Source of the DNA: Nitrospiraceae bacterium
GTDB lineage: Bacteria; Nitrospirota; Nitrospiria; Nitrospirales; Nitrospiraceae
Reading direction: 5' to 3'
Assembly (NCBI GenBank): GCA_050246315.1
Contig: JBFWWG010000001.1
Coordinates: 128,001-192,000 of the forward strand
DNA: 64,000 bases
Position numbers and translations under genes: made by a program. Below, in pieces: positions 3,914-47,647 of this stretch. Below the pieces are notes generated by a model. The model had not been told where the DNA came from. It did no database searches and saw only the letters and a list, made by a program, of their open reading frames with translations. The number at the start of each line of letters is the position of its first letter. Position 1 is the first letter of the stretch.

Positions 3914-4000
3914 TGGTGCCGAAGCCGGGATTTGAACCCGGACACCCCGGAGGGCGCTAGACCCTGAATCTAGTGCGTCTGCCAGTTCCGCCACTTCGGC
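3914..4000 (-). tRNA. tRNA-Leu(CAG)
   Basis: 87-nt cloverleaf: GCCGAAG/CTTCGGC acceptor stem, CTAGA-TTCAGGG-TCTAG anticodon arm, long variable arm, TTCAAAT T-loop, encoded CCA. Confidence 0.97.
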
Positions 4001-45129: not shown

Positions 45130-46074
45130 ATGCGCTATCAACAAACCATAGCCTCTCCGATCACCTGCACTGGTATTGGACTCCATTCCGGGCAGCCGGT
45201 CACCATGACCCTGCTCCCCGCTCCTTCCAACACCGGAGTCGTGTTCCTTCGCAAGGCGGGTGGATCGGCGATTCCGTTGGGCGCCACCATCAGTAATTTG
45301 GTGGCAACGGAACTTTGTACGGCTATCAGCAGCGCCGGCACTCAGATCAAGACCATCGAGCATATCCTGGCCGCACTCTGTGGGTTGGGCGTCGATAACG
45401 TCTACATTGAGATCGACGCCGGTGAAGTCCCGGTCATGGATGGGAGCGCCGGCCCATTCGTGCGTCTGATCAAGGCCGCCGGGATCGTGCCCCAGACCCG
45501 TGCCCAACGGTTCCTCAAGATCACGCAACCGATAGAGATCATGGACAGAGGCCGTCGTGTCGTGATCGAACCGTCTCCGACGCCTAAGGTCACCTATACG
45601 ATCGCCTATGACCATCCGCTGATCGGCATCCAGAGTTACGAGTATGAATGTGCCGCCGACTCGTTCGAACGAGAAATCGCTGATGCGCGGACGTTCGGCT
45701 TCCTGAAGGAAGTGGAAGCCCTCTGGTCGCGCGGACTAGGAAAGGGCGGTTCTCTGGATAATACCGTCGTCCTGTCCGACAACGATGTGATGAACCAGAC
45801 CGGCCTCCGATTCCAGGATGAATTTGTTCGGCACAAGGTTCTGGACTTGGTAGGCGATCTCTCGCTCCTGGGCATGCCCTTCATCGGACATGTCAAAGCG
45901 GAGCGTTCCGGTCATGCCCTCCATACGTCATTGGTCAATCAGATTCTGCGTCGCCCGGAATGCTGGGTTCTTCTGTCCTTGGAGGATCAGCCGGTCGCTG
46001 CGGAACGGTCGCTCCTCCAGCCCTGCACGATTTATCACGCCTCTGCCCTGACGGCTCCGGTCGCCTCGGTCTAA
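45130..46074 (+). CDS. lpxC: UDP-3-O-acyl-N-acetylglucosamine deacetylase
   Basis: GIGLHSG, TIEHILAAL, EVPVMDGSA, ARTFGF, RHKVLDLVGD. Confidence 0.97.
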   Translation: MRYQQTIASPITCTGIGLHSGQPVTMTLLPAPSNTGVVFLRKAGGSAIPLGATISNLVATELCTAISSAGTQIKTIEHILAALCGLGVDNVYIEIDAGEVPVMDGSAGPFVRLIKAAGIVPQTRAQRFLKITQPIEIMDRGRRVVIEPSPTPKVTYTIAYDHPLIGIQSYEYECAADSFEREIADARTFGFLKEVEALWSRGLGKGGSLDNTVVLSDNDVMNQTGLRFQDEFVRHKVLDLVGDLSLLGMPFIGHVKAERSGHALHTSLVNQILRRPECWVLLSLEDQPVAAERSLLQPCTIYHASALTAPVASV

Positions 46075-46162: not shown

Positions 46163-46202
46163 AAAAAAATGCGCCGGAGGTAAGTGGCCTTACCTCCGGC
46201 GC
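46163..46202 (-). terminator. Rho-independent terminator
   Basis: 14-bp perfect stem GCGCCGGAGGTAAG/CTTACCTCCGGCGC, 4-nt loop, T7 tract on the minus strand. Confidence 0.85.
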
Positions 46203-46221
46203 CTGGAGCGGGGGGAGTGAC

Positions 46222-46260
46222 TTACTTCTTCTTCTTCTTCGCAGCCTTCTTCGTTGCCAA
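46222..46260 (-). CDS. 12-aa Lys-rich micropeptide MATKKAAKKKKK
   Basis: GGAGGTGA Shine-Dalgarno 5 nt before TTG; TAA followed by terminator. Confidence 0.6.
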   Translation of the reverse strand: MATKKAAKKKKK

Positions 46261-46683
46261 CGCCCTCACCTCCCTTCACACATGACGTCACGAGTGAATT
46301 GCCGTGGAACGGTCCGCCGCCGCGTCGCGCACGCGAACCGGTGCCGAAGGCCACGCGGCGTGCGGCCTCTTGGTTCGCTGAATTGAACGGAAAATCGATG
46401 ACGATCGTGACGCGCAGGAGCCGAGTTCAGGATGCAGGAATGTCGAAAAGGATGAACTGGAGTGCAGCCTACCACTCAGGTGCGCGGCGAATCCCGCATC
46501 GCTCACGCAAACCCGTTGCGTTGCGGATCGATAATTGGAAACAATCCCGAACGGACAATTAAACGAAACGCGCTTGTCATCAAGCTTGAGAAGGGGAAGG
46601 CGAGAGGCGAAACGTCGTGGTTCGTATTCGATGTTCAATCCTTTGAGTTCTCCAAAATCGGATCTCACTCAAAGCATGTGTGC

Positions 46684-46712
46684 TTTATAGCAACAGCGTT
46701 CACTGAGATCAA
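46684..46712 (-). promoter_or_regulatory. Sigma-70-type promoter
   Basis: TTGATC-N17-TATAAA on the minus strand. Confidence 0.6.
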
Positions 46713-46834
46713 CAAAAATCTCTTGCACTCGGCGGCGACGACGACTCGCTGGCTCTCTTTTCGGTCGTCGCTGGCTCATTTCACCTGAAAGTGTAGCACG
46801 TGTGGATGGTTTATCAATCGAGGCGAGGAACCGA

Positions 46835-47647
46835 ATGAGTCGCGATGCTCAACCAGAATCACTGACACACGCCATGGATACGGCGGTCGCCGCCGCGCGG
46901 AAAGCCGGCGCGCTTCTTCGTGAACAGGCGGAGTCGGGGTTCGGGATCGAACGAAAGACATCAATCGTCAACCTGGTAACCGATGCCGACCGAGCTGCGG
47001 AAGAGTCGATCGTGACACAGCTTCTGGCCGCATACCCGACGCACGGGGTGCTCGCCGAGGAACGGGGACAGGACGGCCGTGTGGAATCACACTGCCGATG
47101 GATTATCGATCCGCTCGACGGCACCACCAACTTCGCCCACGGCTTTCCCTTCTATTCCATCTCCATTGCGCTGGAACAGCAGGGAACCTGCGTCCTGGGC
47201 GTGGTCCTGGACCCGATTCATGACGAACTGTTCACGGGCGAGATGGGACGAGGCGCGCGGCTCAACGGCCGGCCGATACAGGTATCCCGTGTGGCGGTCC
47301 TGGATGACGCGCTGCTGGCCACCGGGTTCGCCTATGACATCCGGGAGGCCGCCGACAACAACCTGGACCACTTCAACCGCTTTGCATTGCGCGCACAGGG
47401 AATTCGCCGCACAGGATCGGCGGCCTTGGATCTCTGCTACGTGGCGGCGGGAAGACTTGATGGCTATTGGGAGGTGACACTGAGCCCTTGGGACTCGGCC
47501 GCCGGATCGGTCATCCTGAGGGAAGCCGGTGGCCGGATCACGCACTTCGATGGCTCCCGCTATTCCATCTACGGTCAGAACCTGGTCGCCAGCAATGGCC
47601 CGCTACATCCATCTCTGTTGCAGGTGTTGGCCGAACGGTCGAAATAG
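46835..47647 (+). CDS. suhB: Inositol monophosphatase family protein
   Basis: LVTDAD, AEE, WIIDPLDGTTNF, GSAALDL, WDSAAG. Confidence 0.93.
   Translation: MSRDAQPESLTHAMDTAVAAARKAGALLREQAESGFGIERKTSIVNLVTDADRAAEESIVTQLLAAYPTHGVLAEERGQDGRVESHCRWIIDPLDGTTNFAHGFPFYSISIALEQQGTCVLGVVLDPIHDELFTGEMGRGARLNGRPIQVSRVAVLDDALLATGFAYDIREAADNNLDHFNRFALRAQGIRRTGSAALDLCYVAAGRLDGYWEVTLSPWDSAAGSVILREAGGRITHFDGSRYSIYGQNLVASNGPLHPSLLQVLAERSK

Follow-up and report, generated by a model that had tools for sequence, protein, structure and literature searches.

Very basic or very small polypeptides have been described in several settings. Histone H1-like proteins built from K/A/P repeats are represented by chlamydial Hc2 (PF07382), the Burkholderia-type proteins (NF038053), the Rv3852 family (NF050153) and Pseudomonas AlgP. 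The ribosomal micro-proteins eL41, Thx, bS22 and bL37 are 24 to 37 residues long, have sequences that are fixed and specific, and occupy known sites in ribosome structures, and bS22, bL37 and bL38 reportedly figure in established work on small ribosomal proteins. The delta subunit of RNA polymerase (RpoE) of Firmicutes combines a HARE-HTH domain with a polyanionic tail, and attenuator leader peptides are exemplified by trpL, pheM and hisL. Here, we describe an open reading frame (ORF) of 12 codons that encodes the lysine-rich peptide MATKKAAKKKKK on the minus strand between lpxC and a suhB-like gene in a 64,000-nt stretch of a Nitrospiraceae bacterium genome (GCA_050246315.1, contig JBFWWG010000001.1, positions 128,001 to 192,000; this whole stretch is called the window, and positions count from its first letter).

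Judged by comparison with its relatives, this micro-ORF is a real protein-coding gene, unannotated and strongly conserved, and selection acts on it at the amino-acid level. This is in line with an earlier prediction made from the letters of the window (the original prediction), which had proposed a basic micropeptide that annotation would miss. Literature searches by peptide string and by keyword found no description of such peptides, and passages of PMC9297842 concern a uS19 tail and not the micro-ORF gene.

A conserved 12-codon gene and its hairpin

With the whole 727-nt intergenic region as a BLAST query against 41 genomes (the window's own and 40 relatives), 23 genomes matched. The leader upstream of the micro-ORF was matched in two congeners only (G001 and G003, the ones with the region assembled; 79 to 80% identity), and in 20 of the 24 other family genomes the match is limited to query positions of about 520 to 645 (window 46280 to 46160), i.e., to the Shine-Dalgarno (SD) sequence, the ORF and a hairpin, at 70 to 88% identity. 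Among the 17 copies of 12 codons found in this way (11 distinct DNA sequences), all seven variable columns are third codon positions, with first and second positions frozen and four-fold degenerate sites free. The original prediction had named just this comparison of lpxC-suhB intergenic regions as a check, and the variation of the ORF among these copies is synonymous only.

We observe the same picture when copies are collected without regard to the ORF, using as anchors the SD (GGAGGTGAG) and the hairpin loop (RAGGCCACTY) across 301 family genomes. This search gave 76 matches in 74 genomes (three for the reversed-pattern control), and all 76 copies carry a TTG codon 4 to 6 nt after the SD and an intact ORF of 11 to 14 codons. 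Exactly MATKKAAKKKKK is encoded by 64 of them, and the remaining 12 are variants by whole codons or conservative changes, including MAKKKAAAKKKKK, MATKKKAAKTKKKK, MATKKGAKKKKR and MAAKKKAKKKKK; one 11-residue variant comes from an unpublished genome (G398), which, like the unpublished G009, enters the searches and the alignment as a single row, with no claim resting on either.

Across the order, a pattern for the exact peptide with a TTG start is present in 155 of 401 genomes and in none for the reversed pattern, and its occurrence is therefore far beyond chance. By family, the counts are 154/259 for Nitrospiraceae (f1), 0/115 for f2, 0/21 for f3 and 0/5 for f4, with the 12-mer identical across at least 19 genera. 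In family f3, 12-mers with an ATG start (MATKKKAGKKKK) are found, in one genome as two tandem copies; tandem duplicates, some with hairpins of their own, occur in G348, G032 and G022. The SD core GG.GGTGA is invariant in 40 of 40 aligned relatives, and the block of SD, ORF and hairpin is 95 to 96% identical within the genus, compared with 85% for lpxC and 81 to 82% for suhB. Lack of conservation of the SD and the ORF had been put forward as an observation that would speak against the gene; both are conserved.

In the window itself, direct reading recovers on the minus strand all parts that had been described (promoter, SD, TTG-started ORF of 12 codons and 14-bp hairpin). The features of the locus are as follows.

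46222..46260, minus strand: ORF of 12 codons with a TTG start and a TAA stop, encoding MATKKAAKKKKK
46265..46272, minus strand: Shine-Dalgarno sequence GGAGGTGA, by direct reading, with a 4-nt gap (GGCG) to the start codon
46203..46221, minus strand: C-rich spacer of 19 nt from the stop codon to the hairpin, with a CCCNCC motif conserved in the alignment
46171..46202, minus strand: hairpin of 14 bp with 10 G-C pairs and a GCCA loop, from the terminator scan
46163..46169, minus strand: run of seven T after one A that completes the shape of an intrinsic terminator, from sequence and terminator scan
46273..46540, minus strand: 3' part of the leader, diverged, probably the decayed remains of a lost first cistron
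46541..46677, minus strand: 5' part of the leader, conserved, with a 5' hairpin and a C/U-rich tract able to pair with the SD region in the minimum free energy (MFE) fold
about 46677, minus strand: predicted transcript start, placed from the promoter position
46684..46689, minus strand: -10-like hexamer TATAAA, by direct reading, 17 nt from the -35-like hexamer
46707..46712, minus strand: -35-like hexamer TTGATC, by direct reading, invariant in three genomes of the genus
46790..46817, minus strand: second promoter-like site, TTGATA-16(TG)-TACACT, from the promoter scan, upstream of TTGATC/TATAAA and conserved in the genus
45130-46074, plus strand: lpxC (E = 1.5e-104), convergent with the micro-ORF
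46802-47647, plus strand: inositol-monophosphatase/suhB-like gene (E = 4.5e-71)

The codons of the ORF are TTG GCA ACG AAG AAG GCT GCG, five times AAG, and TAA, so that the peptide has eight K, three A and one T after the initial Met; an in-frame TGA lies five codons upstream of the start. As a side observation on the neighbouring gene, the suhB-like frame probably has its start at ATG 46835, behind GAGGCGAGGAA, instead of at GTG 46802, with the Pfam match starting at residue 25 of the longer frame.

With respect to the hairpin, 98.8% of cells are paired over the 14 pairs in 40 distinct sequences, and 12 of the 14 pairs show compensatory changes. The covariation score was reached by none of 500 shuffles, and controls slid along the alignment are 44 to 53% paired. 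Among the relatives, the G-C pair that closes the loop does not vary, nor do most positions of the GCCA loop, and the consensus fold of the aligned block consists of this single hairpin only. In the window, the 14-bp stem, the A and the T7 run give the G+C-rich hairpin followed by a U run of an intrinsic terminator (terminator-like sites between 45000 and 48000 number 5, against 2.4 +/- 1.7 in shuffles). In many relatives the hairpin stands without the T run, and its role may therefore extend beyond termination. In 81.6% of cells the C-rich spacer could pair with the SD, without covariation. A contact between the GCCA loop and the start codon (UGGC) was considered and dropped as sterically unlikely.

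A HARE-HTH cistron upstream of the micro-gene and its probable loss in one genus

In other genera, the micro-ORF is flanked by the same genes and has company on its own strand: between lpxC and suhB, both on the plus strand, the opposite strand carries a gene for 170 to 185 aa that ends about 45 to 50 nt before the micro-ORF. Its product has an N-terminal coiled coil and a C-terminal HARE-HTH (winged-helix) domain (PF05066, E = 4e-12 and 7e-12) and is 84 to 94% identical across Nitrospiraceae; public homologues carry the names Nitrospira defluvii, Ca. Nitrospira bockiana and Nitrospiraceae. This protein (L005:1638-2195, L009:1646-2164, homologues P0003-P0122) shows a housekeeping-like degree of conservation in its own right, and its annotations go no further than hypothetical or winged-helix. 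Neither the window's genus (g1) nor the two g5 genomes tried were found to have it. A search of the window's genome, which is 100% complete, with this protein gave 0 matches at E<=10, and a search of the same genome with PF05066 gave 0, this profile being detected as a control in 3 of 14 known genomes.

In L005, L006 and L010, TTGACA-17-TAATAA/TACAAA is followed by TGCTTTG, with the reading frame of the HARE-HTH gene opening about 20 nt downstream; the TTGATC/TATAAA promoter of the window, together with its TGCTTTG motif at the transcript start, is homologous to this operon promoter, and the first ~45 nt of the leader align with the start of the HARE-HTH cistron. The TTGATC-17-TATAAA box is identical in both congeners apart from one spacer base; it is absent from the list of the promoter scan because the rule of the scan requires T at position 6 of the -10 hexamer. 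From these comparisons, the long leader is probably a genus-specific relic, in which the first cistron of the operon has decayed while promoter, micro-gene and hairpin were kept. Since the leader had no tblastn match to the HARE-HTH protein at E<=100 and no similarity is seen beyond the first ~45 nt, the case for a decayed cistron is confined to the common promoter and those ~45 nt. That the micro-gene was kept after the decay of the winged-helix cistron is an indication that the peptide is of value on its own. The stand-alone transcript with a leader of about 410 nt in the original prediction thus describes this genus; as a general design it does not stand, since elsewhere the HARE-HTH gene is the first cistron.

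Within the genus, identity to G001 and G003 is 97.5 to 100% for the promoter, 90.5 to 92% for the first 137 nt of the leader (46541-46677) and 72 to 79% for the remaining leader, and among the three species those first 137 nt are more conserved than lpxC (85%) or suhB (81 to 82%). The leader folds with a z-score of -2.28, and the MFE structure pairs the C/U-rich tract with the SD of the micro-ORF about 400 nt away. As an observation apart, the conserved 5' leader may, on the basis of this modeled fold, be a genus-specific element of translational control. The leader does contain an ORF of 126 aa (46668-46288) with an S/R-rich, junk-like translation, but this ORF has no Pfam match and its frame is disrupted in the congeners by indels of 9 and 23 nt, so the earlier reading that the leader holds no convincing ORF is upheld.

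RNA libraries contain the micro-ORF region. Parts of it are present in 16 runs, and in the four examined they appear as contigs, those from two studies spanning 46208-46825 (X1) and 46274-46749 (X5). Because contigs reach beyond the predicted start at about 46677, the TACACT site or the leader of suhB on the opposite strand may contribute to them. In two runs, short contigs over the ORF have k-mer depths of 254 to 1404, compared with 15 to 54 for flanking contigs, with conserved words pooling relatives. This is a weak hint of abundance and does not rank expression as high, as the original prediction had it, since contigs give neither strand, ends nor level; stretches not covered by contigs and runs with a small share of the region carry no weight in the analysis.

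Such RNA could also be the functional product. In one version of this alternative, the block of about 120 nt is a small RNA (sRNA) derived from the 3' end, with (AAG)n and the hairpin binding a protein such as Hfq and the ORF being incidental; in another, the leader is a structured dual-function RNA. The invariant loop-closing region and strong covariation of the hairpin, the fold of a 141-nt block (z = -3.17), the k-mer depth over the ORF (for which pooled relatives could account) and the conserved first 137 nt of the leader would all suit an RNA. We nevertheless hold it to be very improbable, given the strict codon periodicity, the conserved start and stop and the restriction of indels to whole codons. 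Although (AAG)5 and a hairpin are present as in Hfq-dependent sRNAs, the Hfq profile PF17209 was not found in the complete genome, with the control detected in 5 of 14 known genomes, and the leader is not conserved outside the genus. No match at the Rfam gathering level is found at the micro-ORF region, the best between 45900 and 47000 being at E = 4.8 to 9.6. Together with the conservation of the leader within the genus only and its modest fold z-score, this gives no support to the dual-function structured RNA that the original prediction had offered as an option. Elsewhere in the window, a tRNA-Leu (CAG) at 3914-4000 (minus strand) is the sole Rfam or ARAGORN match, and the Rfam match at gathering level covers 3917-4000.

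K/A/P-repeat proteins in the slot and a proposed polycation

The slot behind the HARE-HTH gene is not always filled by a 12-mer. Within the family, longer in-frame variants have 16 aa (G012) and 18 aa (the three g28 genomes studied), and G022 carries a tandem pair of 15 and 20 aa, so that forms of 16 to 20 aa are seen in g10, g28 and G022. In the sister families f2 and f4, the HARE-HTH gene is present in four of five genomes tried (65 to 75% identity), and behind it GGAGGTGAG is followed by a TTG/ATG GCN start and a longer ORF. A scan of f2 and f4 limited to ORFs of at most 31 codons with at least 45% K+R gave none, and the longer forms were found by reading the DNA directly: 63 aa in G028 and 64 aa in G025, with repeats of the type (KKAAKKKAPA). 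In G054 the ORF has 28 aa and a hairpin of the kind seen behind the micro-ORF, and in G027, where it runs off the locus, it has at least 21 aa. The longer forms are made of KKAA/KKPA/KKAP units, and the micro-ORF and the sister-family K/A/P-repeat genes have the slot start TTGGCNAC and the SD in common. By this reading of the DNA, the window ORF stands at the lower end of a length series: K/A/P-repeat polycation genes that occupy one conserved slot and range from 11 to 64 residues.

The matches of the 63- to 64-aa forms to histone H1-like models are weak and compositional: 24.4 bits (E = 3e-5, cutoff 80) for NF038053, 17.3 bits (E = 0.005, cutoff 40) for HC2 PF07382 and E = 3e-4 for the Rv3852 family NF050153. 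Because these scores are below the cutoffs, we do not file the window ORF as a member of a histone H1-like family; the 12-mer itself is below the 20-residue minimum of the profile scan. Database relatives of the 63-aa form were not found at E<=0.001 among proteins of 34 to 111 aa, a result of little weight because the search penalises low complexity.

The longer forms in sister families would also fit a different history, in which the micro-ORF is the shrinking relic of a longer H1-like gene and its peptide does little by itself, or in which its translation matters in cis, for protection of the mRNA 3' end or for tuning termination opposite lpxC. The ORF always lies 16 to 25 nt before the conserved 3'-end hairpin and faces lpxC, and the pairing potential of the SD, with the post-stop spacer on the one hand and with the C/U-rich tract of the g1 leader on the other, agrees with a cis-acting role. 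Selection at the amino-acid level, with four-fold sites free and first and second positions frozen, does not, and neither do the tandem duplications with their own hairpins or the similar ORFs in unrelated contexts of other phyla. Furthermore, the ORF is almost unchanged after loss of the sole upstream cistron that it could have served, and a ribosome at the stop codon would, from its known footprint, fall short of a hairpin 19 nt away. We regard this explanation as unlikely.

Building on the observed conservation, coding signature, synteny, length series and hairpin, we instead favor, with a probability of about 0.55, the reading that MATKKAAKKKKK is a minimal histone-H1-like nucleic-acid-binding polycation, the product of a real micro-gene that stood ancestrally behind the HARE-HTH gene. 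Translation of the micro-ORF would begin at the invariant TTG behind a dedicated, very strong SD, and the conserved hairpin would mark the end of the transcript. Once Met has been removed, as is probable, the peptide would read ATKKAAKKKKK and carry a net charge of about +8. DNA is condensed by multivalent cations of charge +3 or more, and by analogy the peptide would act in trans as a counter-ion in the manner of a histone H1 tail, binding and compacting nucleic acid, with DNA as the most likely target. In the ancestral arrangement, the micro-ORF would have been the second cistron after the highly conserved coiled-coil/HARE-HTH gene, and in most lineages the peptide would work alongside the winged-helix protein; in this genus, that cistron would have decayed to the non-coding leader of about 410 nt, with promoter, micro-gene and hairpin retained. 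A histone-tail-like function is, by this analogy, the most likely one for a peptide that is presumably made and presumably binds. The idea of a polyamine substitute was also considered and found no support, a Spermine_synth-like gene being present (37.9 bits).

Several points weigh against this reading. Translation and the peptide are deduced from sequence only, and trypsin would destroy a Lys-rich 12-mer. Against the H1-like profiles, the longer forms fall far short of the curated cutoffs (24 vs 80 and 17 vs 40 bits), with scores that reflect composition only, and the 12-mer cannot be scored against any profile. With respect to the supposed partner, a lysine-rich stretch (at least six K in any 12 residues) is found in 0 of 154 HARE-HTH representatives, which include the best 150 of 369 matches, so no fusion connects HARE-HTH and the micro-gene; the partnership is optional at best, since the peptide persists without the HARE-HTH gene. 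Finally, the exact 12-mer over at least 19 genera is tighter than a mere counter-ion predicts and would suit a specific binding pocket too, and the invariant TTG start and hairpin loop are left unexplained by a polycation.

A specific pocket is what a ribosome-associated micro-protein would offer, i.e., a lineage-specific peptide that fills a site in rRNA in the way of eL41, Thx, bS22 or bL37. Extreme basicity, a very strong SD, a single copy in the genome and the exact sequence over at least 19 genera would all be expected of such a protein, and look-alike ORFs stand in housekeeping contexts, e.g., between an aminoacyl-tRNA synthetase gene and secA in bacteria of the candidate phyla radiation. 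However, the products of the orthologous slot differ in length by repeats (11 to 64 residues), which is unlike a fixed ligand of an rRNA pocket, and the operon partner is a winged-helix protein, with no ribosomal genes adjoining the micro-ORF in Nitrospirales. Searched against PDB sequences, the 20-aa variant had no match at E<=10, a weak test with a short, low-complexity query. Taken together, we consider a ribosomal role quite improbable, and the minimal H1-like polycation is the reading retained below.

Look-alike ORFs in other phyla and comparison with described systems

A collection scan for GGAGG, a start codon, two free codons, KK, one to seven free codons, KKKK and a stop gave at least 120 loci. 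Among the matches listed, 105 loci hold 110 in-frame ORFs of 10 to 16 aa; residue 2 is Ala in 99 of these and residue 3 is K, A or T in 101, though codons 2 and 3 were free, while for 88 no start codon is possible beyond 10 codons upstream and 14 may represent the tails of longer frames. By record title, the listed look-alikes belong to Rokubacteria/Methylomirabilota (often two in tandem), Binatia, Terriglobia, Verrucomicrobiota, Eremiobacterota, Armatimonadota, Patescibacteria and DPANN archaea. In the Nitrospirota sample, the same pattern is found in 14/64 genomes of f1, 1/1 of f3 and 0/236 of other families (control 0). No neighbour gene common to the look-alike phyla was seen among 70 flanking ORFs scanned, the neighbours varying by lineage, and 20 look-alike loci gave 0 Rfam matches. 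The class is partly set by the search pattern itself, and its low complexity leaves homology and convergence undistinguished.

Individual groups of look-alikes have settings of their own. In the Rokubacteria/Methylomirabilota loci (L062, L068, L071, L083, L092, L094 and others), one or two tandem ORFs of the type MAKKKAAKKKKK separate recG from a 349-aa gene with a weak AbiEi_2 match, and behind each ORF lies a GGTGGGGGGTGGCGGCCTCCCACC hairpin; the 349-aa protein was considered as a HARE-HTH relative and is unrelated (BLASTP, E = 19). In the Binatia-type loci (L057, L064, L093, L096, L100 and L130, at ~1260-1330), an ORF of 15 to 16 aa encoding poly-Lys precedes a stretch of ~50 nt that is near-identical across differently labelled phyla and ends in the anti-SD-like CCCTCCTTA, ~250 nt upstream of an AhpC/TSA-like gene; this stretch has no Rfam match. 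In the Patescibacteria-type loci (L077, L122, L115 and L084), a class-II aminoacyl-tRNA synthetase gene and secA flank a poly-Lys micro-ORF, behind which stands a palindromic motif (TTGGTAA...CCAATTGATCAATTGGTAA) that is conserved. L123 and L132, titled Bifidobacterium sp. and Verrucomicrobiota, are near-identical, with the same micro-ORF, downstream sequence and PolB-like exonuclease gene, and one of the two labels is probably a binning error.

A broader and more tentative idea, which we hold to be possible but doubtful, is that gene-encoded oligolysines of 10 to 16 residues (MA[K/T/A]KK...KKKK) are widespread, unannotated free polycations that serve as diffusible counter-ions of DNA or RNA, as a peptide counterpart of polyamines or of histone tails provided in trans. 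Such a class may span Nitrospirales and the look-alikes in Methylomirabilota/Rokubacteria, Acidobacteriota, Binatia, Verrucomicrobiota, Eremiobacterota, Patescibacteria and some DPANN archaea, and, if real, would count among the smallest conserved trans-acting protein-coding genes known. For Nitrospiraceae, a peptide that is made and binds nucleic acid would mean that a 12-codon gene missed by every gene caller is conserved in the chromosome or RNA biology of the main nitrite-oxidising bacteria of wastewater and soils, and that histone-H1-like polycations can shrink to a single repeat yet stay under selection. The genus of the window is a natural experiment in this respect, as the partner winged-helix gene is lost and the micro-gene stays, separating the two functions. 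The look-alikes in many uncultivated phyla further suggest that annotation pipelines systematically miss very small basic proteins.

Compared with the described systems, the locus has features of several. Like attenuator leader peptides, the ORF has about a dozen codons, is enriched in one amino acid and has a terminator hairpin close by; unlike them, it stands at the 3' end of its operon and no co-directional gene follows (lpxC is convergent), and no antiterminator pairing was found. It resembles the ribosomal micro-proteins in being very small, very basic, prone to be missed by annotation and designed for strong expression, but differs from them in its repeat-variable length (11 to 20 aa in the family and 28 to 64 in the sister families) and in having no ribosomal context. 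The delta subunit RpoE offers a parallel in the genetic link of a HARE-HTH domain to a low-complexity polypeptide of high charge, with the difference that its tail is acidic and fused, whereas here the polypeptide is basic and encoded by a separate gene, and the HARE-HTH domain is C-terminal to a coiled coil.

The bacterial H1-like proteins, at about 100 to 200 residues, are much longer than the 12-residue product of the window, and even the 63-aa forms score far below their cutoffs; the locus is further set apart from them by an invariant TTG start, by a conserved hairpin and by an operon order in which a HARE-HTH gene comes first and the polycation gene second. At the same time, the Lys/Ala(/Pro) repeat composition and very high positive charge that characterize these proteins are found in the micro-ORF product, and the series as a whole has their K/A/P/T low complexity, KKAA/KKAP units, extreme positive charge and shifts in length by gain and loss of repeats. 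Of the two analogies drawn in the original prediction, the histone-like tail fits better, with K/A/P-repeat proteins of 28 to 64 aa in the orthologous slot, and the ribosomal one fits less.

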